This document shows, piece by piece, positions 36,075 to 54,674 of a DNA stretch of 64,000 nucleotides. A program made the translations under genes and the position numbers. The notes below the pieces were generated by a model that was not told the origin of the DNA, made no database searches, and worked only from the letters and a program-made list of their open reading frames with translations. Positions within the stretch are counted from its first letter, which is position 1; every line of letters begins with the position of its first letter. Origin of the DNA: Treponemataceae bacterium (GTDB lineage Bacteria > Spirochaetota > Spirochaetia > Treponematales > Rectinemataceae); contig CAXXVZ010000003.1 in the NCBI GenBank assembly GCA_963678065.2, positions 32,001 to 96,000 on the forward strand, written 5' to 3'.

Positions 36075-36389
36075 TCATCGTTGACCAGCCAGCGAGGTCT
36101 CGAGTCGGGCCAGCCGGTCCTCGAGCCTATCGAGCGCATCCGGCAGGGCTTTTTCGCTTTTGGCCCGGGAGCACAGGGCGGGATTGTTCACCCACCAGTC
36201 CATGCCCATTTCCTTGGCCTTATCCACCGAGCAGATAACCAGGCGAATCTGGATCGTCAGCAACTCGACATCGACAAGGTTGATCCTGATATCGCCTGCG
36301 ATGACGATGCCCTTGTCCAGAACCCGCTCGAGAAGGTCCGCCAGGTTCGTGCTTCCCACGGAATTCGTGACTCTGCGTGTTTCTGCCAT
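36075..36389 (-). CDS. gvpJ: Gas vesicle protein GvpJ (GvpA/J/M family)
   Basis: LADLLERVLDKGIVIAGDI...VELLTIQIRLVICSVDKAKEMGMDWW. Confidence 0.9.
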   Translation of the reverse strand: MAETRRVTNSVGSTNLADLLERVLDKGIVIAGDIRINLVDVELLTIQIRLVICSVDKAKEMGMDWWVNNPALCSRAKSEKALPDALDRLEDRLARLETSLAGQR

Positions 36390-36403
36390 TTTTCATCTCC
36401 CAT

Positions 36404-36781
36404 TTATAGAAGTTTTCCCAGAGGGCCCAAGTCCAGATTCAAATCTTCATCCTCGAGACCGAACTCGCCGGCGATCCTGGTGAGCACCTCGGATTGTTGC
36501 ATGAGGGTCAGTCCGAGTCGCTCGATCTCGGCATCCGTGAGATCGCCCCCGTCGATCCTCCGGAGCGCCTGTTTTTCCAGGAGTTCGTGGAGGAGCTTGA
36601 CCACTGTCAGGACCAGTTGAGCCAAGCCGTCCTTCTTTTTTTCATGATCCATATCCAGACGGCGGGGCGGCAACAGCGCGCTGCCTGCCGTCATTGTTTT
36701 GGCAAAGTCTCCTATAGCGGGAGAATCCACCATCGATTCGACTGCGGGATACGCTAAAGAATCATCGCTGATGTTCATCAT
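36404..36781 (-). CDS. gvpK: Gas vesicle protein GvpK
   Basis: LAQLVLTVVKLLHELLEKQALRR, EIERLGLTLM, LNLDLGPLGKLL. Confidence 0.92.
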   Translation of the reverse strand: MMNISDDSLAYPAVESMVDSPAIGDFAKTMTAGSALLPPRRLDMDHEKKKDGLAQLVLTVVKLLHELLEKQALRRIDGGDLTDAEIERLGLTLMQQSEVLTRIAGEFGLEDEDLNLDLGPLGKLL

Positions 36782-36969
36782 GTCTGGCTTTTTCCCTTCC
36801 TGGCTGTTTCCACGGAGGATACGATCACCTGCAAGCTCAGATAGATCAGATCGATATCGGCAACGGAAATTATTGCCTCACCGACAATTACAGCGCCTTT
36901 GTTGAGAATCCGGTCCAGGGCCTCGCAGAGGCTCACATGTTCTTTTTCAAGGGCGAAGTCATCGGGCAT
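36778..36969 (-). CDS. gvpS: Minor gas vesicle protein, GvpS-like (GvpA family)
   Basis: LCEALDRILNKGAVIVGEAIISVADIDLIYLSLQVIVSSVET. Confidence 0.8.
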   Translation of the reverse strand: MPDDFALEKEHVSLCEALDRILNKGAVIVGEAIISVADIDLIYLSLQVIVSSVETARKGKSQT

Positions 36970-37010
36970 GCTGCCCCCTCCGGCTGGAGTGCGTTCCACA
37001 ATTCATCATT

Positions 37011-38984
37011 CTATCCATGCCGGTAACCCTCCGTTCCCGCTATCCCGCCTGCGTTGCCGGTCATATACAGGAGTTGCCCGAGGGCCGTGAGCTCTGCTAT
37101 TCCCCGGGGGTCGCTTTGTCGGTACACGAGCGTCTGCGAAGTGCCGGGGAAGGCCGCCGCAAAGCGTTCTTTGACAAGCGACTCCCGGCGGAAAATGCAG
37201 GAGCACAGAGGATCGGCGCTCTCCGGCGTCGCCAGATTCAGGAACAGGCAGGAGACCGGAACAGCCAGACGCTTGCATGCGGCCAGCAGATCTTGCGTCT
37301 CCGCAAAGGACATCTCCGTGAGAATGCTGACGGCATACAGGGCCGCCTTGGAGGGGTCATGCAGCATCGCCCGGAGGCGTTTCAGATCTTTGGAAATTTG
37401 GACAAGGCGATTGGTTATTTTCGGCAGCCGGAAAATATCCCGATATTTCAGGAAGAGACCGAATACCACCTTCAGCCACTGCTCGATGATTTCGGGGAGT
37501 TCCAGGAGTCTTATCAGATGCCCTGTCGGCGCGGCATCCAGGACCAGCGCGTCGAAGCGGTCCTCGGCAAGGAAATCCATCACCGATGTCAGCGCCATGA
37601 GCTCGTCTATCCCTGGCGGGGATAGGTCCATGAGCCGCTCGATGACTTCCCGATCATATGTCATGTCGAGGTTAGGCATGATTTTGGTCAGAAACTGTTT
37701 TATTTCACGGCGGTACTGATTTTTCAGCGAGGCGAATTCCGCCCCGGCATCCACTTCCATGGCCCATAGTCCTGGCGTTACCGGCGTCGGTTCGGAGCCG
37801 ATGCTCATGTCGAGGCAATCTGACAGGGAATGTGCCGGATCGGCGGAAAAAAGGAGAATCTTTTTTCCGCCATATGCCTGTGTCAGGCGCAGGGCCGTGG
37901 CGCAGGCCAAGGTAGTCTTTCCGACCCCACCTTTTCCCGCGAAGACGAGCAGAGACGACTCAGGCGGTGGCAAGGCGATGGAGCCGGCTACCCGCGGCGG
38001 GATCGAGGGCAGGGATGGCTGGTCTTCCGAGGCGCGCGCAGATAGCGGATCGAGCCCCTTCCAGAAGGATAGAAGGCCTTCCAGCCCCTTGATTTCCTCC
38101 GGATACATAGGGATTCCCCAGAGGCCTACGCCGGAGAAGAGCTTCTCGCGGAAGAGACGGGAAAGTTCCACCATCTGCCGGGAGCGAATATCCCTGCACA
38201 GGGTACACTGACTTTCCGGATAAAGCCGGTTGACCACGATATCCGCGATCCTGATGCCAAGGTGTTTCAGTTCACGGATCAGATCCAGTGTCTCTTCCAC
38301 GCTCAAGGCCTCGGCCAGCATCACGGGAACGAAACGGCAGCGTTGAGGGTCCTTGAGCAGGCTCTGCATCTGTTTGGCGTCGGATGTAAGTCCGGCGATG
38401 AATCGATCGAGATCGTCCTCCTGATAAGAGCCATGGAACAGCCTCTTCATATAGCGGTACTTGGCCAGAAGAGTATCCAGCGCTTCCAGCCACTTTTCCA
38501 TCAGGTCAGGCATCTCCAGGAGCCGCAGAGTGTGGCCGGTCGGAGCCGTATCCACGATGATCTCGGCATAAGTCCCGGCCGCAACCCACCGACTGATTTC
38601 CAGAAAACTCATAATCTCATCCATGCCGGGAAGGGAGAGCTCCAGGAACCGGTTGATATCCTCTTCATCCAGGAACGTTCCCCGTGAGGCGATCTCCATG
38701 AGTCTCTGCCGGTTCTTTTCTTTGAAGGAGAGAAGGCAGGCTTGGGTATCCAATTCTTCAACTTTCAGATTTTTCGGCAGCTCGGCCCCGGCGAAACTGT
38801 CCTGGAGGGAATGTGCCGGATCGGTGGAAACGAGGAGAATGGAACGATCAGGATGCCGGGTGGCGATGTCCAAGGCCGTCGCCGCGGAGGCAGTAGTCTT
38901 GCCCACACCGCCCTTTCCGCTGAAGAGCACGAGTTGCCAGCGCTCCGCGGTCAGAAAGCCCGGGGCTTCCCGGTGGTTTTTCAT
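37011..38984 (-). CDS. Tandem two-domain ArsA/Get3-family ATPase
   Basis: Two GKGGVGKTT, two S(T/A)DPAHSL, DTAPTGH and DAAPTGH, PG(M/I)DE. Confidence 0.9.
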   Translation of the reverse strand: MKNHREAPGFLTAERWQLVLFSGKGGVGKTTASAATALDIATRHPDRSILLVSTDPAHSLQDSFAGAELPKNLKVEELDTQACLLSFKEKNRQRLMEIASRGTFLDEEDINRFLELSLPGMDEIMSFLEISRWVAAGTYAEIIVDTAPTGHTLRLLEMPDLMEKWLEALDTLLAKYRYMKRLFHGSYQEDDLDRFIAGLTSDAKQMQSLLKDPQRCRFVPVMLAEALSVEETLDLIRELKHLGIRIADIVVNRLYPESQCTLCRDIRSRQMVELSRLFREKLFSGVGLWGIPMYPEEIKGLEGLLSFWKGLDPLSARASEDQPSLPSIPPRVAGSIALPPPESSLLVFAGKGGVGKTTLACATALRLTQAYGGKKILLFSADPAHSLSDCLDMSIGSEPTPVTPGLWAMEVDAGAEFASLKNQYRREIKQFLTKIMPNLDMTYDREVIERLMDLSPPGIDELMALTSVMDFLAEDRFDALVLDAAPTGHLIRLLELPEIIEQWLKVVFGLFLKYRDIFRLPKITNRLVQISKDLKRLRAMLHDPSKAALYAVSILTEMSFAETQDLLAACKRLAVPVSCLFLNLATPESADPLCSCIFRRESLVKERFAAAFPGTSQTLVYRQSDPRGIAELTALGQLLYMTGNAGGIAGTEGYRHG

Positions 38985-39061: not shown

Positions 39062-39310
39062 CTATTCTTCCTCCCCATCGGCGGACTCTCCCTTCAGGGC
39101 ATCGAGGCGGTCGAGAAGCACCTTTTCCGCCGCGTCGAATTCCGCTTCCGTCATCTGTCCCGTCTCCAGCATCATGTAGAGTTCGCCGAGCTTGGCCGTG
39201 ATGGCCTCCGGTTCGGCCTCCAAGTCCTTCTCCACGGCATTGTCGATCTCGCGAAAGATCCACATGAGGCTTCGGAAGGGAAACAGGAGGAGATCATCGA
39301 CTAGGAGCAT
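39062..39310 (-). CDS. gvpG: Gas vesicle protein GvpG
   Basis: DDLLLFPF..L.WIF, LETGQMTEAEFDAAEKVLLDRL. Confidence 0.88.
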   Translation of the reverse strand: MLLVDDLLLFPFRSLMWIFREIDNAVEKDLEAEPEAITAKLGELYMMLETGQMTEAEFDAAEKVLLDRLDALKGESADGEEE

Positions 39311-39361: not shown

Positions 39362-40120
39362 TCAGAGAGCCAGTTCGACATCCACGAAGTTGTGCGGAGC
39401 CCAAGGACCATTGAAATCGAACGTGAAATTGTTGTCGAACTCCTGCGCCGCTGAGCATATGGCGGTTTCGAAATTTTTCTCGATGTTCTGTCGGGACACG
39501 AGACAGGCGAGGTTCATGACCTCTTTTTCGCCGTGGGGGGGGATTCTCTTGATTTCTGCGCAGCAGGACTTCAGGCTCGTCTCCACTTTTTCCGTATGTT
39601 CCTCGCGGTCTTCCTTGAGAAGCCGATCGAAGAGTCTCCCTACCTCGATCTTGTCTTCCTGGGTAGGAGCATGGCGACCGCCAAAGAGCTGATCGCGCGC
39701 CGCCCGCAGTTCGGCGTGGGTGTTGACGAAATACTCGAAGATATTGGGGACATCCCACGCGACCCGTACCCCCATCTCTGCCTTGCCATGAACTCGCTGA
39801 ATCTGTTTGGTAAAGGATTTCCGGTTGAGGGACAGAATCCGCCGGATTTCCTTGTCGCTCTCGGCGATCACGCCAAAACTGATGGGCAAGGGGGAATCCT
39901 CCACCATGAGGCGCTTGAGGACGGTTTGATGAGCGGCGATATGGCGGCGCTCCGGGCGGATCTTCCCGTTGCTGAAATCGCTGACCACAGCGGCGACGTG
40001 GTCGTCCGGGATGAGATAAACCCGCGCCCCATCGATGCCGATCTCGCCGTATTCGCGATTCTCTCTCGCCGGAATGACCGCGTAAAGATACTTTCCCGTT
40101 TGTGTTGTCGTGCTGGCCAT
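39362..40120 (-). CDS. gvpF: Gas vesicle protein GvpF/GvpL family (GvpF1-like)
   Basis: YLYAVI, AHQTVL, LPISFG, GPWAPHNFV. Confidence 0.9.
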   Translation of the reverse strand: MASTTTQTGKYLYAVIPARENREYGEIGIDGARVYLIPDDHVAAVVSDFSNGKIRPERRHIAAHQTVLKRLMVEDSPLPISFGVIAESDKEIRRILSLNRKSFTKQIQRVHGKAEMGVRVAWDVPNIFEYFVNTHAELRAARDQLFGGRHAPTQEDKIEVGRLFDRLLKEDREEHTEKVETSLKSCCAEIKRIPPHGEKEVMNLACLVSRQNIEKNFETAICSAAQEFDNNFTFDFNGPWAPHNFVDVELAL

Positions 40121-40140
40121 ATCGCGTTCTCCCTGATGTC

Positions 40141-40338
40141 TCATGCCACGGGCTTGTTCTTCCCGCCAGTGACGGAACGGCTTTTCCGTTCCGTGAGCTT
40201 CGCTGACTTGACGCGTCCCTCACTCAGCTTGACCTCCACAGTGGCGTTGCAGGCGTAGCACTTGATTTCGCCTTCGTAATCGCTGTAGGACTCATCGAGG
40301 TCGATGTTGTGACCGCAGGATAAACAGTTGATTTTCAT
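40141..40338 (-). CDS. Small zinc-ribbon protein (65 aa)
   Basis: CLSC...CYAC pairs; ATG overlaps the upstream stop. Confidence 0.7.
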   Translation of the reverse strand: MKINCLSCGHNIDLDESYSDYEGEIKCYACNATVEVKLSEGRVKSAKLTERKSRSVTGGKNKPVA

Positions 40339-40562
40339 ATGTACTTCTCTTCCCTTACGAGATTGCTCCACGCCTGATGTTCCGCCCACAGTCGGACGAG
40401 CCAGTCCAGACGGAGCCGTCGGTTGACCAAGTCCACGTACGCCTGGTTGACGCGCCGCGCCTCTCTACGGCCCGCGAAAAAACCCGTGTGGGTTCTCAAG
40501 GCCATGTGGCCCTTCCTGTGACGATTCGTGGGAATGTGATGTGAATCGTAGATTGTCAGCAT
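40335..40562 (-). CDS. Hypothetical protein (75 aa) in the gvp operon
   Basis: SD GGGGAGG; fills the gap exactly; its stop overlaps the next ATG. Confidence 0.55.
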   Translation of the reverse strand: MLTIYDSHHIPTNRHRKGHMALRTHTGFFAGRREARRVNQAYVDLVNRRLRLDWLVRLWAEHQAWSNLVREEKYI

Positions 40563-40576
40563 CAGGGCCTCCCCTA

Positions 40577-40900
40577 TCAGTACCTGATTTTGAACGGTCC
40601 GGTACTCGCGCGCGGCGCTCCCGTCGGCCCGATCGACTTTCGCCTGCATGGCGGCGAGGCGCCGTGCGGCTCCAGAGATTGGAGGGTCTGCGCTTTTTCC
40701 GCCTCGATCTCCTGGAAGCGCTGATCGATAATCCGCAACCTCTCCAAGGCGGTTGTCTTTTCCTTGTTCCGGCGATACTTTTCCATCTCGAGAATGCTGA
40801 GCTTCATATAGGCCTTGTACGGTGTGGCAAAATCATCCACCCGTCCCGACAAAGTCTTGATGTTCTGCAGACCCCTCACGACCTTTTTCGTCGCCGGCAT
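40577..40900 (-). CDS. GvpV-like coiled-coil protein
   Basis: AYMKLSILEMEKYRR...RFQEIE; directly after gvpN; SD AAGGAGG. Confidence 0.65.
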   Translation of the reverse strand: MPATKKVVRGLQNIKTLSGRVDDFATPYKAYMKLSILEMEKYRRNKEKTTALERLRIIDQRFQEIEAEKAQTLQSLEPHGASPPCRRKSIGPTGAPRASTGPFKIRY

Positions 40901-41888
40901 TTCGTACCTCCTTGTGTTTGGCTGGTTTCATCGGCCCACAGACTTTGCGGATCACCTCTTCCACCTTTTCCAATATGATCGGCTGTCCGTCATGAGTGAC
41001 CTTCGCGGTATCGGCGGCGAGAACATCGCGGCAAACTAACTGGAAGAACTCGTCATCCGAGCGGGCGCGGTGATTCTGGGAAGAAAGGATCCGGCCGATG
41101 GCGATGCCTGCCCGGATGGTCGGACGATGGTTGTTCACCCCGAAGGTCCGCAACTCCCGCACCATGTCCACGATCCGCTCGGCGTCCTCCCGGGGCAGAC
41201 CGGATTTTTTCTTGACGATGAGGACTTCAGTTTCCCGGTCGTAATGTTCCAGATGAATGGTGATCAGGCGGTCCATCAGCGCGTCCTGGGTTTTGTGGAC
41301 CCCGGCGTATTCTTCGGGATTGGAGGTGAAAATGGCGCGGAATTTGGGGTGCACGGACAGGTATCCCTCGCCGGACTCGCGGAGTTTCGGCAAGTTCAGG
41401 ATTCCCTCGGAAAGCACACTCAACAAGGCGTTGTTCGCCTCCGGCCGTGAACGGTTGAATTCGTCGTAAATCAATGTATCCCCGTTCCGACAAGCGGTGG
41501 TGAGTCGGTCGTCCACCCAGAAGTTCCGCGTCTCCTCCTCTGTCTTCAGAACGGAGTGAATGAAGTTATCGACCAGTTTGGACTTTCGGTAGCCGCCATC
41601 CCGGCCCACGAGATCCGAGCTACCGAATTCATCATCTCCGTGAACCAGGATGACCGGGCGCCCCAGTTTCGACGCTACATGAAAGGCAAGAGTGGTCTTT
41701 CCCGTTCCTGCCACGCCTGAAAAATGGACTGGGTAACCGGCAATCAAGTAGGCCAAGGCCCGCTGCGTGACCTGCTCGACATAGGGAGACGAGATGAAAC
41801 TGTCGCTGGCCTCGGGTTGGACACCGTCATCTCCGACAGGCACATGAACCGTCGGCAGGGCAAACGCTTCCGCGGCATTTTGACTCAT
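40833..41888 (-). CDS. gvpN: Gas vesicle AAA+ ATPase GvpN
   Basis: GYPVHFSGVAGTGKTTLA, VDNFIHSV, YDEFNRSRPEANN, NPEEYAGVHKTQDALMDR. Confidence 0.95.
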   Translation of the reverse strand: MSQNAAEAFALPTVHVPVGDDGVQPEASDSFISSPYVEQVTQRALAYLIAGYPVHFSGVAGTGKTTLAFHVASKLGRPVILVHGDDEFGSSDLVGRDGGYRKSKLVDNFIHSVLKTEEETRNFWVDDRLTTACRNGDTLIYDEFNRSRPEANNALLSVLSEGILNLPKLRESGEGYLSVHPKFRAIFTSNPEEYAGVHKTQDALMDRLITIHLEHYDRETEVLIVKKKSGLPREDAERIVDMVRELRTFGVNNHRPTIRAGIAIGRILSSQNHRARSDDEFFQLVCRDVLAADTAKVTHDGQPIILEKVEEVIRKVCGPMKPAKHKEVRNAGDEKGREGSAEHQDFVGTGG

Positions 41889-41913: not shown

Positions 41914-42270
41914 TCATCCAGCAGTGACACATCCGCGTCCCCGGCATCTCAGGCAGGCCATGGCCGGAGCAGAGGAATCATCGCCCGAACCGCGGCACAC
42001 AGGGCATGGGACAGTCGGCGACGCGGGCCGGAAAACAGCGCCTTTCCCTCCGCACGCTGTGCAGGTAAGGGTCTTGATGGCCCCTGTTCCCCCGCAGTGC
42101 GCGCAGGTGATGGCGGGGGAGAGTATCCGGACTTTGCCGCTGCCTCCACAGACACAGCACGTTGACAGCTCGGACATGATGCCGAATGGATCTATGCCCT
42201 TGCCGTGACAAAAAGCGCATTTTTTTTCCTCGAAAACCACCCTGTCCTTCGTTGACCTGCGCGGCATCAT
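41914..42270 (-). CDS. Stand-alone DnaJ-type zinc-finger protein
   Basis: Six CxxCxGxG repeats and no J domain. Confidence 0.8.
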   Translation of the reverse strand: MMPRRSTKDRVVFEEKKCAFCHGKGIDPFGIMSELSTCCVCGGSGKVRILSPAITCAHCGGTGAIKTLTCTACGGKGAVFRPASPTVPCPVCRGSGDDSSAPAMACLRCRGRGCVTAG

Positions 42271-42279
42271 GGAAGCACC

Positions 42280-42774
42280 CTACTTCTTTTTCGTCCGCTT
42301 CGGTCTGGCTGCCGATTTGCCCGGCTTCGCGCGAACAGGAGGCTCGCTCAGCCCGTCATTCTCTTCTTCCCCACAAGGTTTCATGGCTGAGTCGGAAGGT
42401 TCAGCCGCCACGACGGAGGAGTCGGTCGCGATGACCGTGGGCTCTGTCGCCATGACCTCGGCTTCGGCCGCGATGACGGTAGGTTCGGCCTCCATGGCGA
42501 TAGGTTCAGCCGATATAACCGAAGGCTCCGCCGTCATGACTGCAGGCTCCGCCGCTATCACGGTGGGTTCAGCCACCGTGACCAGGGGCACCAGTTCTTT
42601 CTCTTCTTCTTTGTCCTGGGGCGCCACCTTGCGCAAGCCCGCCACCTGGTTCCTGATCTCGAGAAGAAAGGCCCTGCGCTCATTCCGCGCCCTCTCGGCC
42701 TGCCTCTTCTGCACGCTGGAAAAATCTGCCAGCATGGACCTCACGTCATTGGCCAGGTTGGTTTTGTAGGACAT
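42280..42774 (-). CDS. Repeat protein in the GvpC position (GvpC-like)
   Basis: Follows gvpA; helical N-terminus, heptad repeats, basic tail. Confidence 0.6.
   Translation of the reverse strand: MSYKTNLANDVRSMLADFSSVQKRQAERARNERRAFLLEIRNQVAGLRKVAPQDKEEEKELVPLVTVAEPTVIAAEPAVMTAEPSVISAEPIAMEAEPTVIAAEAEVMATEPTVIATDSSVVAAEPSDSAMKPCGEEENDGLSEPPVRAKPGKSAARPKRTKKK
42385..42573 (-). repeat. Nine degenerate 21-bp (7-aa) tandem repeats, consensus AEPTVIA
   Basis: AEPTVIA AEPAVMT AEPSVIS AEPIAME AEPTVIA AEAEVMA TEPTVIA TDSSVVA AEPSDSA. Confidence 0.85.
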
Positions 42775-42868
42775 CCTTTCCTCGCAGCCGTTTTTCCCCA
42801 TATCAGCCAGCTTACTCACGAGAATCTCCTTTGCGTGTCCTGTTTCCGTACCGTCCGTCTTCTGGGAG

Positions 42869-42894
42869 GCGGGGAGGGCGTCAGGCCTCCCCGC
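42869..42894 (-). terminator. GC-rich stem-loop just downstream of gvpA
   Basis: GCGGGGAGG-N8-CCTCCCCGC, perfect 9-bp stem with no U tract. Confidence 0.6.
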
Positions 42895-42910
42895 GGGGAA
42901 TTTGTCCGGC

Positions 42911-43129
42911 CTAGGCGGGCATGGCGGCGTTGGCCGTCAAACCGATCGCCTCGGCATACTTGAGATAGGTCTCGACCGACGCGACCACGACGCGCGCTTC
43001 GACCGAGAGCAGTTCGATGCCGACCAGCGACACCTTCACCCAGGCGTCGATCACGATACCCTTGTCCAGGATCCGGTCGACGACTTCGGCCAAACTCGAT
43101 GAATCGGTTGATTTCTGAATCTTTGCCAT
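42911..43129 (-). CDS. gvpA: Major gas vesicle shell protein GvpA (72 aa)
   Basis: [63 protein letters not shown]. Confidence 0.97.
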
Positions 43130-43197: not shown

Positions 43198-43213
43198 TGC
43201 AGGATTCGTGCCA
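43198..43213 (-). promoter_or_regulatory. Sigma54 (-24/-12) promoter of gvpA
   Basis: TGGCAC-GAATC-CTGCA versus consensus TGGCAC-N5-TTGCW, about 70 bp upstream of gvpA. Confidence 0.8.
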
Positions 43214-43305: not shown

Positions 43306-43746
43306 CTATGGCGCCGGAGCTATGGAAGCATTTCCATACATCACGGGCGACTGATTCGTGTTCCCGACCACGGAATGCGGAGAGCCGATGGTGCGCAGAA
43401 TTTCATCATGAGCGAAAGGTTTGGCGACAAAGGCCGAGATCAATCCCGACTGAATAGCCCCTGTGATGGCGGGGTCATCCTGGTAGAAGTAACCGGACAC
43501 GATGACTATGCGGATGCCGGGGATGGATTCCATGAGGCGACGGGCCAGATCGAGCCCATCGTGGTCCGGCAGCTTGGCATCCAGGAAGGCCATGCGGAAG
43601 GATTGGCTTTCCGCCAGGGACAAGGCTTCCTTGGCGTCAAAGGCCGTGCTGCAGATGCCTCCGGTCCCTTTCAGAATCCGCTCGAGAACCCAGCACATCT
43701 CCGGTTCGTCGTCGACGATGAGAAATGGCCCGCTGTCGTTGGTCAT
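43306..43746 (-). CDS. Single-domain response regulator (GvrC-like)
   Basis: [23 protein letters not shown]; no output domain. Confidence 0.85.
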
Positions 43747-45254
43747 GCCTCGCCTTCCTGCATCGCCATAGGCACCCTCAAAGGAAGCGTGACAGTGAAG
43801 GTGCTGCCCTTTCCCTCGGCGCTCTCCACCGAGATGGTCCCTCCGTGCTGCTGCACGATCGAGTAGCAGATGGACAGGCCAAGCCCCGTTCCCTTGCCCA
43901 CGGGGGAAGTCGTGTAGAAAGGATCGAAGATCCTTTCTATGTCACGTTCTGCAATGCCGCAACCGGTGTCAGAGACCCAGACACAGACACCGCCGTTGAC
44001 CGGGCGCACGTCGACCTTCAGGGTTCCTCCCTTTGGCATCGCGTTGATGGCGTTCAGAAAAAGGTTTATGAAGACCTGCTGCAGCAAGGTGGCTTCGCCC
44101 TGTACCATGATGTGGTTCGTGGGGAAAGTCCCTTTCGTCTCAATCCTCTGGAGCGTGGCCTGTTGGGCCAGCAAGTTCAGCGTCTCCTGGATCATTTCGA
44201 CCAGATTGAAGGGGACGGTCCGGGCTGCCACGCGAGGGTGGGAGAATTTGAGAAGACTCTCGATGATCGCCGTGGCCCGCTGAATCCCCCGACGGATTTT
44301 TTCCGCGCACTCTTTGCGGAACTCCGGCGTTATGTCCTCTTCATCCGTGAGAAACTGTGCGGCGGACGAACAGATGGCCAGAGGATTCCGGATTTCGTGC
44401 GCGATGCCTCCCGCCATGACTCCCAGCGAAGCCAGTCTCTGGGACTGGATCAGCTCCATCTCAAACTTGCGCCTTTCCGTCAAATCCCTGCCGACCGCCA
44501 CGACGCCCACTGTCTGGCTCGACCGATCCGGCAGCGGCGAGAAGACCCATGAGACGAGGATGAAGGTCGAGTGTTTGGTTCTAAAGGGGCACTCCTTGAT
44601 CTGGGCGGCGTTTCGCGTGTCGATGTGGGCAAAAATTCCCTCGATGTCCGCTTGGTCCTCTCCCACGCAGAACTCGATGAACTTGTGCCCCCGCGCCTCA
44701 GCGGCGGAATACCCCGAGAGTCTCTCCGCCGAGGCGTTCCACGTCAGGATATTGCCCAATCTGTCCGTCGAAAGCATGAGATCGCTGGCGCTGTCCACGA
44801 TGCTCGCCATGTGCCGCTCCACCCGCCGGACTTCTTCGCTGAGACGCACCTGCTCCGTGACATCGTCCATGAGCAGAAGCACTCCTTCAGTCTGTCCTTG
44901 CCACGAGAACGGGATGAGGCTGTAGTAGTAGATGCGGATGGGTACACCTGGGGCGCGATAGGTCATCCGCTCGCCTTTGGCCGGCTGATTTGTTTCGATG
45001 ACATGCTGTACCCGCCTCGCGATATCCATCTGCTCGAGGATCACGGCGGGGAGCGCCTCCTCGAGCCTGTGCCCGACGGTCTCACGCAATATCCGTTGGC
45101 TTTTTTCGAGGAAATTGCGGTTCGCGGAGAGGATGCGCAGATTCTTATCGATAAGGAGGACGGAAGAGGGGATGGCATCCAGAAGCATGGTGTAGAGTTG
45201 CTCATACCGCGCAGAAACTTCCGCGTCCGCCAGATCGGGTTGGGTGATCCTCAT
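43743..45254 (-). CDS. Soluble PAS-PAS histidine kinase (GvrB-like)
   Basis: Two PAS domains; AHEIRNPL, QVFINLFLNA, DTGCG, GTGLGL; no TMs. Confidence 0.9.
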   Translation of the reverse strand: MRITQPDLADAEVSARYEQLYTMLLDAIPSSVLLIDKNLRILSANRNFLEKSQRILRETVGHRLEEALPAVILEQMDIARRVQHVIETNQPAKGERMTYRAPGVPIRIYYYSLIPFSWQGQTEGVLLLMDDVTEQVRLSEEVRRVERHMASIVDSASDLMLSTDRLGNILTWNASAERLSGYSAAEARGHKFIEFCVGEDQADIEGIFAHIDTRNAAQIKECPFRTKHSTFILVSWVFSPLPDRSSQTVGVVAVGRDLTERRKFEMELIQSQRLASLGVMAGGIAHEIRNPLAICSSAAQFLTDEEDITPEFRKECAEKIRRGIQRATAIIESLLKFSHPRVAARTVPFNLVEMIQETLNLLAQQATLQRIETKGTFPTNHIMVQGEATLLQQVFINLFLNAINAMPKGGTLKVDVRPVNGGVCVWVSDTGCGIAERDIERIFDPFYTTSPVGKGTGLGLSICYSIVQQHGGTISVESAEGKGSTFTVTLPLRVPMAMQEGEA

Positions 45255-46802: not shown

Positions 46803-48937
46803 CCTTGCTCCCCCAGCACGTCGGCTATGGCGTCGTCAATATCCTGACGTTGGATCAGGATTTCCGGTTCTTCCCCTTCGCCCTTCTCCAAGGTTTTCAC
46901 GGCGCGGCGGACTGCCGACATCGCCGCTTTTCGCGCGATAGCGGCGATGTCGGCCCCGCTGAAACCTTCCGTTACCGCGGCGAGTTCCGCGCAGCTGATA
47001 TCTTCCGACAGGGGTTTCTTCCTGAGATGGACGGAGAAGATTTCCTCTCGCTCCTTTTCCTCCGGCATGGTCATCTCGATGATCTCGTCGAAGCGGCCCG
47101 GCCTGAGCACCGCGGCATCCAGCATGTCCCTGCGGTTGGTCGCTCCCAGGACAAGTACACCCCGGAGCTCGTCGATCCCGTCGAACTCCGCCAGAAACTG
47201 ACTCAGGATCCGTTCGGAGACATGAGAGTCCGCGGTTCCGGCGCTCCTCGTCGCCACCAGGGCATCGATTTCGTCGAAGAAGATGATGCACGGCGCCGCC
47301 TGTCGCGCCTTGTGAAAGATTTCCCTGATTCCCTTTTCCGATTCTCCGACCCATTTCGACATCAGGGCGGGCCCTTTGACGGAGATGAAGTTTGTCTGGC
47401 TCTCCGTGGCGATCGCCTTGGCCATCAGGGTCTTGCCGCATCCGGGGGGGCCCACCAAGAGAATTCCCTTGGGCGGGGTCACTCCTCCCTTTTCGAAAAG
47501 TTCGGGGTATTTGAGGGGCCATTCCACGGCCTCGACGAGTCGCTTTTTCAGGCTGTCGAGCCCTCCCACGTTTTCCCAGCGAACATTGGGGGATTCCACG
47601 AAGACTTCCCTGATGGCGGAGGGTTCTATTTCCCGCAGGGCGGCAAGGAAGTCCTCCATCCGCACCTCGAGTTTCGAGAATGTTTCGTAAGGGATAGCCG
47701 CCTGACTGAAATCTATCTCCCCCATGATCTGCCTCAGGCAGATCATGGCGGCCTCCCGGCAGAGAGCCTCGAGATCCGCGCCGACAAAACCGTGGGTGAT
47801 CTCCGACAGATGCTCCATCCGGACATCCCCGGCCAAGGGCATCCCCCGGCTATGGATTTCCAGAATTTCCAGGCGGCCGACCCGGTCCGGGATCGGGATG
47901 ACGATCTCCCGATCAAACCGTCCCGGACGTCGCAGAGCCGGATCAAGGGAATTGGGAATGTTGGTGGCGGCGATGACGATGACATTCTGCCTCTTGTTGA
48001 GGCCGTCCATGAGGGCGAGGAGTTGGGCGACGATCCGCTTTTCCACTTCCCCGACAACATTTTCCCGCGAAGGAGCTATGGCGTCGATTTCGTCGATGAA
48101 CAGGATGCTGGGTTGATTGCTGGTCGCCTCCTCGAAAATCTTCCGCAGGTGGGCCTCGCTTTCGCCGTAAAATTTGTGGACGATTTCCGGTCCGCTGATG
48201 GAAAAGAAGCTGGCCTCCGTTTCGTGGGCTATCGCGCGGGCGATGAGGGTCTTCCCGCAACCCGGCGGGCCGTAAAGAAGCACCCCCCGCGGCGCGTCGA
48301 TCCCGAGGCGCAAGAAGAGCTCAGGATAGCGGAGGGGTAGCTCGATCATCTCGCGGATGCGCTGGAGCTGGGATTTCAACCCGCCGATATCTTCGTAGGA
48401 AAGGGTCTTTCCCCTATCCTCCTCCTGGCTCTTGCCGATCACGAGTACTGTGCCCGGGTGGATGAGGGCCGGACCCTTGGGCGTCACGGATTCGACTTTG
48501 AAATAGGCAGAGCGGCTGCCAAACAGGGCGGCCTGGATTTTTGCGCCCTCCATGACCGGCAGGCCGTCCAGGAGGCTTCCGATGTATTTGAGATCCCGCT
48601 CCGCCGGCACGACGTTGGTCGGCGCCAGGGCGACACGCTCCGCCGGGCGGCAATGGATCTTGCGGATTCTCACGGGTTCATCGAGACCGACGCCCGCGTT
48701 TTCGCGGGTCGAGCCGTCGAGCTGGACCCGCGACTGTCCGCGGAACTCCGCGTAGGCAGGCATGGCCTTGCAGACCGCTTTCCTCTTCCCCTCGACCTCC
48801 ACGATATCGCCGACCGTGATCTGAAGCCTTTCCAGGTCCTCGGGGCCCATGCGGGCGAAAGCCCTTCCGACGTCTTTGGTCAAGGCTTCCGTCACCCGTA
48901 GCTTGACGACAGGCGCCTCATCGTCCTTTGTGGCCAT
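46799..48937 (-). CDS. CDC48/VCP-family double-ring AAA ATPase (GvpZ-like)
   Basis: N-domain plus two [35 protein letters not shown]. Confidence 0.93.
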
Positions 48938-48941: not shown

Positions 48942-49634
48942 TTACCCCGCTTTCCCGCAGCGAATCGTCACGATGCCATTGTTGCAGGTCACCTTGATAC
49001 GCTCCTCCGAGAGAACATGGCGCAGAAGCATCTCCTTCCGGTACTTCTTCTCGCCCCTTTGGGCAAAGATCGTCAGCACGTCATCCCGGACCTCGAGGTG
49101 AATGTCCTCCGGCCCCACGCCCGGCATTTCGGCGACAAGGGTAGTGGCGTCTTCGTCCTCGAAGACGTCGACCAAGGGTTCGTTGATCTCCTGAACCACC
49201 GCCTCGCCGGTTTTTTTGTCCTTCCGGATGTTGCCGAAGGGTTCGACCTTGATATGGTCGCCCTTTTCTCCCAAGCCGGTTTTTACGGTGAATCCGTATA
49301 CCCCTTTGATCCCTCTCTCTTTTGACGAAAAATTGAGCTCCCCCTCTTTCGAGAAGGTTTCGCCCTTTTCCGAAAGCTCGCTGAGCCGTTCGGCGAGGTC
49401 GGCCAGGCCATTCAATATCCCCCCGGCATTGTTCTCGCCTGCCGACTCTTCCTTCGCGGCGCCCGAGCTTTTCGCTTCGCCATCGGGAGTCTCCGCTTTG
49501 CGCTTCGCCAGCCGTTCGGCCGTCCCCGCCAGCTTCTCCACCGAGCCCAGAAGACCTGTCAGTCCGCCGAAGATGCCGCCGAGTTCCACCCTCACTTCAT
49601 CTTTTTTGTCGGATTCGGGTTTCTTTTTACTCAT
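48942..49634 (-). CDS. Hsp20/alpha-crystallin family protein (GvpH-like)
   Basis: GVYGFTV, EPFGN, EPLVDVFE, VAEMPGV, NNGIV. Confidence 0.85.
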   Translation of the reverse strand: MSKKKPESDKKDEVRVELGGIFGGLTGLLGSVEKLAGTAERLAKRKAETPDGEAKSSGAAKEESAGENNAGGILNGLADLAERLSELSEKGETFSKEGELNFSSKERGIKGVYGFTVKTGLGEKGDHIKVEPFGNIRKDKKTGEAVVQEINEPLVDVFEDEDATTLVAEMPGVGPEDIHLEVRDDVLTIFAQRGEKKYRKEMLLRHVLSEERIKVTCNNGIVTIRCGKAG

Positions 49635-51054
49635 CGTCGCCTCCTTGAGTCTGGATACCGAACTTTTTTACCTTCGTGTGCATGGTCTTGTAGTCGATTT
49701 GCAGCAATCGTGCCGCCTTGGCTTTGTTCCCGCCGGTGTATTGCAGAACTCCGACAAGGACTCTCCTTTCCACCTCGACGACGCTCCGACGCACAATGTC
49801 CCGGAGAGACGCGCTCTTCCAGGGCGAGCCGTCCGTCTCCGGCACAAAAGCCGACACCACCATCGCCGCACGCTCAATGCCAAGATCCTGTTCGGTGATG
49901 GCCCCCTTGGACACCAGCGCGGCCCGCCGGATCACTGACTTGAGTTCGCGGACATTCCCCGGCCAGTTGTACGAGATCAGCGCCTCGATCGCCGAATCCG
50001 AAAGTCCCAGGGTCTTCCTGCCCAGTTCGGATTCGGTCATGTCCAGAAACCGTTTCGACAGATAGAGTATGTCCTCCTTTCTCTCCCGGAGAGACGGGAT
50101 ATCGATGGTGAAGTCGCACAGGCGATAATAGAGGTCCTCCCGGAAAGCGCCGGATATAACCATTTCCCGGAGACTCTGGTTGGTGGCGGCGATCAGGCGG
50201 AAATCCACCTCGATGGGTTTGGTTCCGCCTACTCGATTGAGCACCCTGCTCTGGATGGCCCGAAGCAGCTTCGCCTGGGAGCTGAGGGGCAGATTGGCGA
50301 CTTCATCCAGGAATAGTGTGCCACCATTGGCCAGCTCGAACTTGCCCGGTTTCTGTCGGTCCGCGCCGGTAAATGAGCCCTTTTCGTGCCCGAACAATTC
50401 GCTTTCCAGCAGCGCCTCGGGTATGGCCCCGCAATCCACCGTGATGAAGGGAGCCTGGCTCCTGGCGCTGCTCCGGTGGATGGCCGTCGCCACAAGCTCC
50501 TTGCCCGCGCCAGTTTCGCCGATGAGAAGGACGGAAAAGTTCGATTTCGCGACTCGATGGATGTCCGCCGCGATTCTCGCGATCGAGTCCGACGGTCCCA
50601 TGCTCTCGAAAATGGACATGTACTCTAGCGGTTCTCCGGCTGCGGCCTTGTGTTTTCTCAGTTGCCCTTCCGACAAGGCACGCAGGGTGATCCTGGCGAC
50701 TTCGTTGTTGTCGAAGGGTTTGGCTATATAGTCGTAGGCCCCGTCTTTCATCGCCTCGACGGCCTGACAGACGTTCGCGTGTCCCGTTATGAGGACGACG
50801 GGCAGATCATCGTCCAGTTCCCTGATTTTGCCGAGGACCTCCAGTCCATTGAGTCCCGGCATGCTCACATCGAGAAGAACGACCTTGGGCACCGAAGTGG
50901 GAGACTGGATCTTCTGCATCGCCTGATACCCGTCGGCGGCGGTGATGACCTTTATCCCTTCCCTCTCCAGAATATGAGTCAAATTCGTCCTCGCGTCCTC
51001 TTCGTCATCGACGACCAGCGCGTACAGGACGCTATTATCGTCAATATTTCTCAT
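49627..51054 (-). CDS. Sigma54-dependent NtrC-family response regulator (GvrA-like)
   Basis: Receiver domain; GETGAGKE, ELFGHEKGSFTGA, FREDLYYRL, WPGNVREL; Fis HTH GNKAKAARLL. Confidence 0.93.
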   Translation of the reverse strand: MRNIDDNSVLYALVVDDEEDARTNLTHILEREGIKVITAADGYQAMQKIQSPTSVPKVVLLDVSMPGLNGLEVLGKIRELDDDLPVVLITGHANVCQAVEAMKDGAYDYIAKPFDNNEVARITLRALSEGQLRKHKAAAGEPLEYMSIFESMGPSDSIARIAADIHRVAKSNFSVLLIGETGAGKELVATAIHRSSARSQAPFITVDCGAIPEALLESELFGHEKGSFTGADRQKPGKFELANGGTLFLDEVANLPLSSQAKLLRAIQSRVLNRVGGTKPIEVDFRLIAATNQSLREMVISGAFREDLYYRLCDFTIDIPSLRERKEDILYLSKRFLDMTESELGRKTLGLSDSAIEALISYNWPGNVRELKSVIRRAALVSKGAITEQDLGIERAAMVVSAFVPETDGSPWKSASLRDIVRRSVVEVERRVLVGVLQYTGGNKAKAARLLQIDYKTMHTKVKKFGIQTQGGDDE

Positions 51055-51683
51055 TGTCTGCCCGACCCGCTTGTCCGGGACCCGTCAGGACTCCCGAGGG
51101 GATAGAGCACGCGGATATCCGCCGGCAAATGCGCGATCGGGTTGTGCAGCATACCCAGGAAGAGGATGCCTGTTTCTCCCGCCTGTAGAGTCTGGTCGAT
51201 CCTCGCCGCGATGAAGGTATCCCGCTTCTCCAGGAGCTGATCGCTCGTCGCTTTCTGTTTGACATCGATTTTTATGGTCTCCCTGGCATTCCTCGCTTCG
51301 AGGATTTTTTTGGCGAGGCGATATTCCTCGATCAGCAGCTCTGCGGATTCCGTGCCCATGATCGTCGCCCCTTTTTCTTTGAGCCGGATGAGAAGCAGGT
51401 GATTCTGGCTGCCCATTTTCGCGATGTCCGCGACAATATCCGCCTCCTTGTCGCATATCGGCAGACCATCCTGATAAACACGTGTCCGCGCATACGGCAG
51501 CGAAAGGTCGTTGAAGACGATATCCTCGATGCTCGACCAGAACCGCCCGACCAGATCGACCTTCTGCCGCCACACGCGTTGGCCGAGTTTGCGCTGAGTG
51601 ACCTCCATGATGGACTGCCCGAGTGCGCCCATCTCCGATTGACTGTGTATGATGGGAAAGTAGTAAAGCGTTCGCGATGTCAT
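51051..51683 (-). CDS. Hypothetical protein, first gene of the gvr operon
   Basis: 210-aa ORF whose stop overlaps the activator ATG; motifs PIIH, VYQDGLP, GTES, RD.FIA, GMLH. Confidence 0.75.
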   Translation of the reverse strand: MTSRTLYYFPIIHSQSEMGALGQSIMEVTQRKLGQRVWRQKVDLVGRFWSSIEDIVFNDLSLPYARTRVYQDGLPICDKEADIVADIAKMGSQNHLLLIRLKEKGATIMGTESAELLIEEYRLAKKILEARNARETIKIDVKQKATSDQLLEKRDTFIAARIDQTLQAGETGILFLGMLHNPIAHLPADIRVLYPLGSPDGSRTSGSGRQ

Positions 51684-51843
51684 GGTTTTTCCGGTTTGAG
51701 TGCTTGTGCCATGTGTATAAATTTTCTATATCGCGACCCGGACCGCAATCACCGAATTCGGGGATACGTGGCTTGGGAAACCTGGATTCTGACTTTTCCC
51801 GGCACCGTTTCGCTGTGACGAGTCGGTGAGTCAGGCTTTCGCT

Positions 51844-52488
51844 CTATTCCGGCGACGTCATCCCTTCCCTGATGGCGTACTTGGTGAGTTCGGCGATGCT
51901 GTGCAGACCGAGCTTGTCCATGATGTGCTTGCGGTGCGAGTCGATCGTGGTCACGCTGACACCGAGCTTCGCCGCGACGTCCTTGTTGCTTTGCCCCTCG
52001 GCGAGCAGTTGCAGCACCTCGCGTTCCCGGTCGGACAGGGGCGAATCCATAGGCACCAGCATATCGGCCAGCTGGCTGATGTAGTCGGTGAGCAGCATGT
52101 CGGCGATCTTCGGATTGGTGTAGATGTGGCCGGACGCCACAGCCCGGATCGCGGCGGCCAACTCCTCGAAAGCAGAACCCTTCAGTACGTATCCCATCGC
52201 GCCCGCCCCGAACATCTGTCGCACGAAGCGTCGGTCCGCATGCATGGATAGAGCGATAACCTTGACTTCCGGCGTTTCCTTCCGGATCTGCCGCGTGGCC
52301 TCGATCCCGTTCAGGTCCGGCATCCCGATGTCCATCAGCACCACATCCGGCCGCAGGTCGCGCGCCATGCGTATGGCCGCGATTCCGTTTTCAGCCTCCC
52401 CGACCACGCTCATCCCGCTCTGCCCCTTAATCAACTCCTGCAGGCCCTCTCGCATCAGTGTGTGGTCATCGGCGATCAGTATTCTCAT
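51844..52488 (-). CDS. NarL/LuxR-family response regulator
   Basis: ILIADDH, LMDIGMP, LSDREREVLQLLAEG, HRKHIMDKL. Confidence 0.93.
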   Translation of the reverse strand: MRILIADDHTLMREGLQELIKGQSGMSVVGEAENGIAAIRMARDLRPDVVLMDIGMPDLNGIEATRQIRKETPEVKVIALSMHADRRFVRQMFGAGAMGYVLKGSAFEELAAAIRAVASGHIYTNPKIADMLLTDYISQLADMLVPMDSPLSDREREVLQLLAEGQSNKDVAAKLGVSVTTIDSHRKHIMDKLGLHSIAELTKYAIREGMTSPE

Positions 52489-52535
52489 GATCCTGCTCCC
52501 TGCCTGATTTCGATGTCCGCAATGCGGCGGCTTTA

Positions 52536-54674
52536 TCAGAGCGGCCGCATTGTGGGAACCGTCAACGACACCCGCGTCCCGCAGCCCGGTCCCGACTCGA
52601 TCGTACACTGCCCGCCTATCGCGGCCAGATACTCCCGTACGCTGTACAGCCCAAAACCGACTTCGTGATTCCGCCAGTCCAGGAGCGACAGGTCGAAGCC
52701 GCGCCCATCATCCTCGACGGTCACGCGGACCAGCTCCCCCACCCGCTCCATCGCCGCGCTCAGCCTTGTCGCCTTCGCGTGTTTGACGGTGTTCATCATC
52801 AGCTCGCGGACGCAGCGGAACAGCAGTACTTTCCGTTCATCGTCCAAGGATTTCGGCTCGCCGTCATCGCGATAGACGAAGGCCAATCCGTAATCCCGGC
52901 AGATTTTTTCGCCTGCCCACTCCACCGCTGCCGTCAAATCCAGCTGATGAAGGACCGGGGGACTCAGGTTGAACACCAGCGAGTGCATCCGGTCAATGGT
53001 CGTTTCCAGTATGTCACGAATCTGTGCGATGCTCGCTTGGGCAGGGCGTGAGTCGAGTGTCGTCGCCAGGATGCCGAGCTTTATCCGGAGCAATGCCAAG
53101 GCCTGCGCGATCTCATCGTGCAAGCTTGCGGCCAGTCGACGCCGCTCTCGCTCCTCGACCCGCGACAGTTCCATGGCCAATTGACGCAGCCGGGCCTCTG
53201 AAGCGCGCAGCGCCAGCTCCACCTGTTTGCGCTCGCCGATGTCGCGGCATATGCTCATCATCGCCGGTCGGCCATCCCAGGTGATCCGCCGCGCATTCAC
53301 GTCAGTCGGGATGAGAGAGCCGTCCCTGCGCCGATGTGCGGTTTCATACGAGAGATGCCCGCGCTCCATCAGCAAGGCTATCCGGTCCGGCGCGCGCGGA
53401 GCTTCCTCTTCCGAGTTCACCTGGTCGATTGTCATGGACAGCAACTCGGCATGAGTGTATCCAAGCCGCTCACAGGCCCTCGGATTGGCCGCCAGTATCC
53501 GCGCGCCTTCGTCGCAGATGAAGATCGCGTCGCCGGCATTGTCAAACAGAGTCATATATTTTTCTTCGCTCTCCTGCAACATCATCTCGATCCGGCGTTG
53601 CGACAGAGCTATCGCCATGTTGTCGGCGATCCTTTCGAAATGGGCGATCAGTTCGGGGCTGAATCGATTCTTCTGGTGGTCATTGAATTGCAGCAAACCG
53701 AAGATCCCGCGCGCCGCGCGCATAGGAATCAGCGCCAGTGATTCGTATCCCTCTTCAGCGCACCGAATGCGCGCGCTTGTCAGGCGGTCGACTTCGCCGA
53801 TACTGGCAAACAGGGAGCGGGCGCTGTTGGACCAGAAGCTCCCGTGGGCGGTGAAGAAGGGTTTTGTGGGATCGAAGCGGCCGGAAAGAACATTTCCGCA
53901 CATACACACGAGCACAGGGGTGTTTGCGCCATCGCGCAGGGTTCTGCCGTATCGGTCGTACGCAGAGAGGCGGTTCTCTGCGCGGACAAACGCGGGCGAA
54001 AAGCCTCGGCTCCAGTAATATGGATAATCATCCCCGGCGCTCAGGCGAATGCCGATGGCATCGCATCCCGCCCACTCTTGCAGGGAGGCGGCCAAGGTCG
54101 ATATATGCTCACGAATATCGCCCGGCGTGTTTACAATCGCGGTAAGACATGCCATCAACTCGCGCTCGCGCTCCTGGATCTTGCGCTCGGTGATATCGCT
54201 CATCACGACGTGGCACAGGGGAGTGCCATCGGCGTCCCGCGCATCGACGATCTCCATCCGTACCCAGAATGGAGCGGCGTCTGTTCGCAGCATCCGCAAT
54301 TCGCAGGTCCGCGATGTGCCGGCCTGCCCCGATCCTGCCAGCTCAGGGCCTGTCCGTATCGAATCTGTCGAATGGGTTTCATGAGGCTGTTCGCGGTGCA
54401 GGCTGTAGATGTTCCGGTCGTCAGGGAGAATGAACGTGGTGATCGGCTGCCTGACCAATGCGCTCCTGGCCAGACCCAAGAGGGCGGCGGCGGCGGGGTT
54501 GGCCTCCATGATCAGCCCCTCATCAGAGATGGTGCAGTAGCCCACCGGGACCAAGTCGTAGAAAGCGAGGTATCGCGCCCGCGCGGCCTCCGGTTCCGCC
54601 CGCACTTCGCGCGAATCCTGCCCTGAATCTGCCGAAAGAACGACGCCACCGGAGCGGGTATCCTTGTTGTTCAT
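52536..54674 (-). CDS. Soluble PAS-GAF-PAS histidine kinase (HisKA_3 type)
   Basis: EERERRRLAASLHDEIAQ, ELMMNTVKHA, DDGRGF, GFGL. Confidence 0.9.
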   Translation of the reverse strand: MNNKDTRSGGVVLSADSGQDSREVRAEPEAARARYLAFYDLVPVGYCTISDEGLIMEANPAAAALLGLARSALVRQPITTFILPDDRNIYSLHREQPHETHSTDSIRTGPELAGSGQAGTSRTCELRMLRTDAAPFWVRMEIVDARDADGTPLCHVVMSDITERKIQERERELMACLTAIVNTPGDIREHISTLAASLQEWAGCDAIGIRLSAGDDYPYYWSRGFSPAFVRAENRLSAYDRYGRTLRDGANTPVLVCMCGNVLSGRFDPTKPFFTAHGSFWSNSARSLFASIGEVDRLTSARIRCAEEGYESLALIPMRAARGIFGLLQFNDHQKNRFSPELIAHFERIADNMAIALSQRRIEMMLQESEEKYMTLFDNAGDAIFICDEGARILAANPRACERLGYTHAELLSMTIDQVNSEEEAPRAPDRIALLMERGHLSYETAHRRRDGSLIPTDVNARRITWDGRPAMMSICRDIGERKQVELALRASEARLRQLAMELSRVEERERRRLAASLHDEIAQALALLRIKLGILATTLDSRPAQASIAQIRDILETTIDRMHSLVFNLSPPVLHQLDLTAAVEWAGEKICRDYGLAFVYRDDGEPKSLDDERKVLLFRCVRELMMNTVKHAKATRLSAAMERVGELVRVTVEDDGRGFDLSLLDWRNHEVGFGLYSVREYLAAIGGQCTIESGPGCGTRVSLTVPTMRPL

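Follow-up and report, generated by a model that had tools for sequence, protein, structure and literature searches.

A Serratia/Desulfomonile-type gas vesicle gene cluster in a Rectinemataceae spirochaete

We analysed a 64,000-nucleotide stretch of the genome of a Treponemataceae bacterium (Spirochaetota, family Rectinemataceae; assembly GCA_963678065.2, contig CAXXVZ010000003.1, forward-strand positions 32,001 to 96,000; hereafter the window), which contains a gas vesicle protein (gvp) gene cluster of the kind described in Serratia and Desulfomonile. The cluster is intact, was likely acquired horizontally by this spirochaete, in which no flagellin gene was detected, and, in our judgement, would probably give gas vesicles for flotation. 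The genes, their order, a promoter motif, the signature of selection, the identity of the host and the linkage of cluster to host can all be read directly from the data.

Gene content of the cluster

Between positions 36075 and 54686, the minus strand carries 23 open reading frames (ORFs), all uninterrupted and co-oriented. The first-pass annotation of this DNA had described 23 co-oriented genes comprising a gvp set, chaperones and regulators, a description borne out by the ORF list, Pfam and NCBIfam; the searches it had proposed with the Gas_vesicle, GvpL/GvpF, GvpG, GvpK and GvpN models all returned matches. Its boundary at 36075 also stands, whereas the other end, given as 54674, proved to be the second in-frame ATG of the kinase gene, whose first start lies at 54686. 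Corrected starts were obtained for gvpA (43129), gvpN (41888), the ArsA gene (38984) and the LuxR gene (52488). Three proteins match PF00741, and all PF06386, PF05120 and PF05121 matches exceed the Pfam cut-off; at cut-off, Pfam and NCBIfam gave no match for the ORFs at 51051-51683, 42280-42819, 40577-40900, 40335-40562 and 40141-40338. A profile search of the genome found no other gvp locus, making this cluster the sole one of the host.

In Serratia sp. ATCC 39006, A1, A2, A3, F1, F2, F3, G, K, gvrA, gvrB and gvrC are reported as essential, while N and V serve elongation (Tashiro 2016; PMC4982088). Each gene needed in Serratia has an intact counterpart in the window (a likely one in the case of V) according to the ORF list, Pfam and NCBIfam; with this whole set, the GvrA/B/C counterparts and a sigma-54 motif, the cluster deserves its earlier description as complete and self-regulated. 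Genes mostly overlap or nearly touch; the two widest gaps, of 160 nt ahead of the 210-aa gene and of 176 nt ahead of gvpA, suggest two main operons. The features are listed below in the order of transcription, with the labels gvrA, gvrB and gvrC assigned by domain content and position; numbers beginning with L designate related loci.

52536..54686, minus: PAS/GAF HisKA_3 sensor kinase of the second two-component pair (Pfam; 66-70% in L084/L001)
51844..52488, minus: NarL/LuxR response regulator (PF00072 and PF00196; ratio of nonsynonymous to synonymous substitution rates, dN/dS, 0.08 vs L001)
51051..51683, minus: 210-aa cluster-specific protein, likely GvpY, predicted EreA/ChaN-like fold (AlphaFold2 (AF2) model, co-occurrence, primer peptide)
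49627..51054, minus: gvrA, NtrC-type sigma-54 activator (Receiver, Sigma54_activat and HTH_8)
48942..49634, minus: gvpH, Hsp20-type small heat-shock protein (PF00011; NF041800 at 117 bits, below its cut-off of 140)
46799..48937, minus: gvpZ, Cdc48-family AAA+ ATPase (TIGR01243, 887 vs cut-off 802.65)
46002..46802, minus: gvpF2, GvpL/GvpF (PF06386, 154 bits)
45267..45995, minus: gvpF3, GvpL/GvpF (PF06386, 141 bits)
43743..45254, minus: gvrB, PAS histidine kinase (PAS, HisKA and HATPase_c)
43306..43746, minus: gvrC, single receiver domain (PF00072)
43198..43213, minus: sigma-54 (-24/-12) promoter-like motif, 84 nt before the gvpA start
42911..43129, minus: gvpA1, major shell protein, 72 aa (NF006874, 133 bits vs cut-off 100; dN/dS 0.02-0.03)
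42280..42819, minus: shortened gvpC-like gene (one helical repeat region and a 21-nt (7-aa) repeat tail)
41914..42270, minus: DnaJ-type zinc-finger protein (PF00684)
40833..41888, minus: gvpN, AAA+ ATPase (TIGR02640, 341 vs cut-off 266.8)
40577..40900, minus: likely gvpV, 107 aa (position after gvpN; C-terminal motif)
40335..40562, minus: conserved 75-aa protein of no known family (31/74 loci; dN/dS 0.20-0.36; no Pfam match)
40141..40338, minus: 65-aa zinc-ribbon protein (two CxxC motifs; Pfam zinc-ribbon matches below cut-off; 59/74 loci)
39362..40144, minus: gvpF1, GvpL/GvpF (PF06386, 207 bits)
39062..39310, minus: gvpG (PF05120)
37011..38984, minus: tandem two-domain ArsA/Get3-family ATPase, at the position of Serratia gvpW (TIGR00345, 393 vs 135)
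36778..36999, minus: gvpA2, GvpS/M-like (PF00741)
36404..36781, minus: gvpK (PF05121, 106 bits)
36075..36389, minus: gvpA3, GvpJ-like (PF00741)

Host identity and contig integrity

The host genome (G000) amounts to 5.27 Mb in 5 contigs and is 99.94% complete, with a contamination estimate of 6.72%. The window lies on a 2.4-Mb contig that also bears 16S genes, which reach 94-95% to two genomes of the family and 85-87% to two of the order. The flanking PrfC had been singled out by the first-pass annotation for assigning taxonomy. Of four family genomes searched for it, two have a counterpart with 73-74% identity and two yielded none; a PDB search with PrfC was of no help in placing the host. A single further family genome (G048) carries gvpN, within locus L001; its cluster is 74-79% identical to that of the window and sits among its own, different housekeeping genes, at another chromosomal site. 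The spirochaete host that had been surmised from the genomic backbone is borne out by 16S, PrfC and G048 alike.

An assembly or binning artefact joining a foreign cluster to a spirochaete contig would be in keeping with the contamination estimate and with the closest relatives of the cluster belonging mostly to other phyla, but it is scarcely credible. A contig of a different study (X7 record 25) covers the whole 20 kb, both junctions included, with 489 differences; groundwater contigs (X5) also bridge both junctions, and contigs from sludge and lake (X11 and X20) bridge the left one. A further contig, identical in sequence, may be the one from which the assembly derives. The contigs across the junctions rule out the chimera envisaged at first pass, and the 16S and PrfC evidence from the same contig and the occurrence of a cluster among the housekeeping genes of G048 speak against an artefact too.

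The G048 cluster has peculiarities of its own: it is without F2 (L085:3770-9156) and, after ArsA, continues with a double TetR gene and with gvp genes of another set: a 333-aa protein in which a GvpA domain is joined to PH/GRAM-like domains, a GvpK, a protein of 336 aa without assigned function and a GvpL/F. Its make-up suggests a hybrid between two types of cluster.

Gene order compared with known systems

For comparison, we used the best 80 of 313 confirmed GvpN loci, drawn from Desulfobacterota, Victivallales, Acidobacteriota, Verrucomicrobiota, Chloroflexota and others. In Serratia sp. ATCC 39006, a block ordered gvpA1-C-N-V-F1-G-W-A2-K-X-A3-Y is followed by gvrA-H-Z-F2-F3-gvrB-gvrC (PMC4982088; PMC9501494 Table 1). 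The gene set of the window matches it, and within each block the genes follow one another in the same way; in both, GvpA and GvpF come as three paralogues each, GvrA/B/C are present and a sigma-54 site precedes gvpA1. Since gvpY directly precedes gvrA in Serratia as well (PMC9501494 Table 1), the layout of the window corresponds to the Serratia order circularly permuted, the cut falling between gvpA3 and the likely gvpY. It differs from Serratia in having a tandem ArsA in place of gvpW, no ORF at the gvpX position and a shortened GvpC, and in adding a DnaJ zinc finger, the 75-aa ORF, a zinc ribbon and a kinase-LuxR pair; at the protein level, likeness to Serratia was judged by primer-derived peptides only.

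This order is the usual one among the best 80 loci, across several phyla: gvpZ lies upstream of gvpN in 39 of the 40 loci with at least 9 kb of upstream sequence, gvrA does so in 35 of these 40, and a DnaJ finger separates gvpA from gvpN in 43 of 65. The first-pass annotation was right that the second Serratia block is reproduced, in order, upstream of gvpA, but the permuted and expanded layout it took as special is common, the upstream regulatory block recurring in the 39 of 40 loci just mentioned. An inverted operon order is also in print for Psychromonas ingrahamii 37 as well as for Desulfomonile tiedjei DCB-1 (Tashiro 2016; PMC4982088); recurrence and precedent together rule out a novel gene order. 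The four Desulfomonile loci (L036, L043, L058 and L064) read gvrA-H-Z-F2-F3-gvrB-gvrC-A-DnaJ-N-V-Zn-F1-G-A2-K-A3, with the regulators upstream of gvpA as in the window; unlike the window, they are without ArsA, and they belong to a different phylum.

Nor is the ArsA gene, listed at first pass among the extra genes, new to such clusters. Castillo and Saier (2010; PMC2963123) reported two-domain ArsA proteins in gvp clusters of four phyla, Geobacter and Acidobacteria among them; those of Geobacter uraniireducens, Pelodictyon luteolum, Polaribacter irgensii, Anabaena/Nostoc and Acidobacteria (gvp clusters 4 and 6) measure ~640 aa, as in the window. As in the window, Hsp20 accompanies ArsA there; the ArsA was proposed to energise vesicle biogenesis, and the part of that paper covering these clusters describes no regulators, small ORFs or spirochaete host for them. 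In our comparison, 37 of 54 loci have an ArsA gene placed between gvpG and gvpA2. The kinase-LuxR pair is present in G048 and absent upstream of the gvpY-like gene in all eight other regions; it looks like the only host-specific part of the layout.

Some relatives are plasmid-borne, which indicates that the gvp module is mobile: locus L086 of Methylocella tundrae, with gvrA, gvrB, gvrC and a 210-aa homologue between Hsp20 and a split Cdc48, and L087 of Spartinivicinus ruber, which adjoins IS6/IS630 transposases.

Promoter, selection and transcription

A sigma-54 site precedes gvpA1 in Serratia (PMC4982088), and the spirochaete genome encodes rpoN. Of 58 loci, 17 have a strict sigma-54 motif ahead of their first gvpA, compared with one of 73 in the control region before gvpN. 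With a relaxed motif, defined after the data were seen, the count rose to 39 of 58, and 37 of these motifs lie at -69 to -134, the controls giving 64/1600 in random windows, 0/20 before gvrA, 0/73 before F1 and 9/73 before gvpN. Scans for sigma-70 promoters and terminators performed no better than chance.

Values of dN/dS ranged from 0.02 to 0.37 in 18 of 22 genes in comparison with L001, and from 0.02 to 0.33 in 20 of 22 with L027. Purifying selection on all tested genes implies that the cluster is used, for a purpose that it leaves unspecified. Among related strains, nine of the 12 listed indels (16 in all) are intergenic, while the remaining three, which lie within genes or where gvpG ends, all have lengths divisible by three.

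RNA depth as a measure of gvpA expression was discarded: it was high at 92% likeness and dropped to the background level at 97%, and the flanks accompanying it were foreign, which points to other organisms; contigs, besides, cannot rank genes. The signal stems from the lake metatranscriptome of run X19, where very deep gvpA-like RNA contigs with different flanks correspond to window positions 42737-43403 and suggest that related clusters are transcribed in that lake.

Distribution and origin

Within Rectinemataceae, gvpN was detected in 2 of 69 genomes. PF00741 exceeded its cut-off in 2 of 401 genomes of the order, with one weak extra match, and gvpK was found in none of the 400 other Spirochaetota genomes sampled; in the phylum of Desulfomonile, gvpN occurs in 21 of 301 genomes. 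A GvpN tree (quick and unrooted, with 71 rows from close matches only; 10 of the 80 loci were left out for an internal stop) groups the window with L001, then with Victivallales and two unclassified bacteria, then with Desulfobacterota, each with a Shimodaira-Hasegawa-like approximate likelihood ratio test (SH-aLRT) support of 99. The identity of GvpN to the Victivallales proteins is 84-88%.

A rival view makes the cluster an ancestral spirochaete trait that has since disappeared nearly everywhere. In its favour are the two carriers from different genera, with sister GvpN sequences and a common kinase-LuxR pair, which leave room for a degree of vertical inheritance, or of transfer inside the family. 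Ancestry at the level of the phylum is nevertheless very unlikely: no gvpK turned up in the 400 other genomes, the GvpN identity to Victivallales is far too high for a phylum-level split, and the two spirochaete clusters occupy different chromosomal sites. Horizontal acquisition of the cluster is the likely origin. Rectinema cohabitans is described as living with Desulfobacterium N47 (PMC6052044), and a record named Desulfobacterium N47 bears a related cluster (L015), which shows an opportunity for transfer only.

As to earlier reports, our search of titles and abstracts on gas vesicles and spirochaetes, most subscription papers lying outside it, retrieved none on the subject. The main text of a phylum-wide spirochaete preprint (10.1101/2025.07.04.663154) has zero mention of "gas ves", "gvp" or "buoyan". 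A table of 288 vesicle-forming strains in PMC10344784 contains no "chaeta", "Borrelia", "Brachyspira", "Treponem", "Leptospir" or "Rectinema", and none of its 38 matches to "spir" is a spirochaete. The first-pass annotation knew of no characterised spirochaete gas vesicles, and the sources searched yielded no report of any.

Proposed mechanism and competing explanations

Transfer, expression, vesicle formation and flotation are what we infer from these data, and the mechanism is modelled on Serratia genetics. The PAS kinase GvrB and the receiver GvrC would activate the NtrC-type GvrA, which together with the sigma-54 of the host would turn on transcription at the -24/-12 motif before gvpA. GvpA1 would build the shell; A2, A3, F1-F3, G and K would be needed for assembly to start, and GvpN and GvpV would lengthen the bicones to cylinders, with the short GvpC adding little strength. 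Likely chaperones of the hydrophobic shell proteins are Hsp20, Cdc48, the Get3-like ATPase and the DnaJ zinc finger, and the extra kinase-LuxR pair is the likely driver of the upstream operon. A Desulfobacterium vacuolatum cluster is reported to give vesicles in Escherichia coli (PMC10344784). Serratia vesicles are induced at low oxygen (PMC6617781). The host genome encodes a cytochrome bd oxidase, for which G048 gave no match.

Several observations count against a transferred, vesicle-forming cluster that serves flotation. As regards transfer, the donor lineage is unproven, the tree being quick and unrooted; searches for an integrase, for flanking repeats (among the repeats listed) and for an empty site found none, the host genus consisting of one genome; the GC content at third codon positions, 0.73 vs 0.79, is a small shift; and some of the sampled spirochaete genomes are covered in part, so that uncovered stretches could hide clusters. 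As regards expression, near-identical contigs from two lake metatranscriptome runs are equal over cluster and flank, making transcripts and DNA inseparable; the majority of clusters tried in E. coli gave no vesicles (PMC10344784), and the gvp cluster of S. coelicolor is described as cryptic (PMC4982088). As regards flotation, near-identical DNA occurs in groundwater and sludge, where floating is less obviously useful, and the GvpC of the window is truncated.

The last of these considerations lend themselves to another explanation, in which the intact cluster has a role other than flotation (gas exchange, for instance, or adjusting the ratio of surface to volume, in sediment, sludge or aquifer biofilm) or is switched on only under rare conditions. 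The groundwater and sludge runs, the existence of cryptic clusters, the truncated GvpC and, weakly, RNA contigs that show no clear gvpA excess for the host population all fit it. We consider it unlikely, yet a more serious contender than an ancestral or artefactual cluster. Set against it are the selection on all tested genes, indicating a cluster in use for whatever purpose, the presence of the host population in lake-water runs of one study, and the whole Serratia-essential set with its promoter motif. Vesicles for flotation are the reading that we retain as probable.

GvpC-like, GvpV-like and ArsA proteins

Residues 5-69 of the GvpC-like protein match an HMM (hidden Markov model) built from 57 proteins encoded after gvpA (E 6e-12), but the N- and C-terminal motifs of that family are absent; the Pfam GvpC model matched neither this protein nor five relatives. 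Serratia peptides were obtained by hand translation of published deletion primers via the in-frame scar and match over 6-9 residues, which makes them leads only; one of them, the start of Serratia GvpC, resembles the N-terminus of the relatives' post-gvpA family. In its tail, the GvpC-like gene carries a degenerate 21-nt tandem repeat (42398-42586; 7-aa units) not seen in the orthologues of L001, L004 and L027. Many Desulfobacterota loci (L011, L016, L019, L020, L025, L063) carry a tandem gvpA-gvpC(short)-gvpA-gvpC(long), where the window has a single pair.

The 107-aa gene lies directly after gvpN in all 74 loci, and its conserved C-terminal motif matches the primer-derived end of Serratia GvpV, so it is likely gvpV. 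It overlaps gvpN by 68 nt (40833-40900); most relatives' GvpN aligns up to residue ~326, and those of L002, L033, L053 and L057 up to 350-351. In the ESM Atlas, the 107-aa and 210-aa proteins fell into unnamed clusters only, and homologue searches provided no informative names.

The ArsA protein has two P-loops and one CxxC, and scores 182 with the arsenical-pump model TIGR04291, whose cut-off is 650. An arsenite pump, or a partner of the neighbouring arsR-arsP, was therefore rejected: the model failed, arsP is on the opposite strand and no arsP homologue was found in the 80 loci. A 24-nt near-perfect direct repeat (34457-34480 and 34925-34948) lies upstream of the arsR-like ORF and of arsP, and probably represents ArsR operator sites. 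One possible reading of a Serratia primer located downstream of gvpG yields the motif closing the first ArsA domain of the window protein, hinting that Serratia gvpW is an ArsA remnant.

The 210-aa protein

In the phylum of Desulfomonile, on which our view of the family outside gvp clusters is based, the 210-aa gene occurs in 19 of 301 genomes, all within the 21 that have gvpN, and in none of the 280 others. It precedes gvrA in 23 of 23 loci, with shifts of position within some clusters, and a primer peptide of Serratia gvpY shows a 6-residue match to the N-terminal strand of the family. Sequence and position thus make it the likely GvpY. In E. coli carrying the Serratia cluster, deletion of gvpY, W, H, Z or C is reported to lower the signal (PMC10344784).

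The AF2 model (predicted local distance difference test score, pLDDT, 89) resembles ChaN (2g5g; Z 9.3, root-mean-square deviation (rmsd) 4.2, 157 aligned), HopBA1 (5t09; Z 8.2) and EreC (6xcq; Z 6.3). The likeness to the EreA/ChaN-like fold extends over most of the chain, but with ~10% identity and an rmsd >4 Å, and Foldseek returned no match at E<=0.001. We take these three proteins to belong to an EreA/ChaN-like superfamily with a His / acidic / Arg-Asp / His catalytic motif; a literature search on the Tiki/ChaN motif gave no useful match. In the 210-aa family, His13, Asp72, Arg154, Asp155 and His180 are kept in 81-82 of 82 alignment rows, and a metal-dependent hydrolase or a heme-binding role appears plausible.

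Motility background

Neither G000 nor G048 matched flagellin, FlaA (searched with a positive control), rod/hook proteins or MotB; two flagellated relatives did, while a third relative, G049, is also without them. From these gene contents, neither carrier should swim. The host shows a weak FliG_C match and retains fliF, fliH, fliI, fliR, flhB, flhA and flhF, its FlhA scoring 623 bits vs 816-842 in the flagellated relatives. These genes form a diverged export/MS-ring operon with open frames (L107; G000:C3:1178553-1192704), perhaps an export system that derives from the flagellum, or else a remnant in decay. The idea that gas vesicle gain accounts for flagellum loss throughout the family finds no support: 38 of the 39 family genomes without an FlhA match are also without gvpN, a single one having it, so flotation is not a general replacement for swimming.

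One may go further and picture a spirochaete that lost its periplasmic flagellum, kept the export gate and MS ring, took the cluster from neighbouring anaerobes and came to position itself by flotation only, as the first gas-vesicle-forming spirochaete, with GvpY acting in vesicle biogenesis as an EreA/ChaN-fold hydrolase or heme-binding sensor. This full scenario is tentative, and we would put its chances at somewhat less than even.

Biological significance

What is new here is the host; the gene set and its layout are already known and common to many bacteria, and a known kind of system limits the surprise. The layout is widespread in uncultured bacteria of several phyla, with conserved accessory genes. 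The link between the 210-aa protein and GvpY, together with its predicted fold and candidate active-site residues, makes one unknown Serratia gene directly testable, and the lower vesicle signal of the gvpY deletion in E. coli (PMC10344784) makes it relevant to the design of acoustic reporters. If the cluster is expressed, a phylum defined by endoflagellar swimming would join the gas vesicle makers, and flotation would have reached a lineage without its flagellum.

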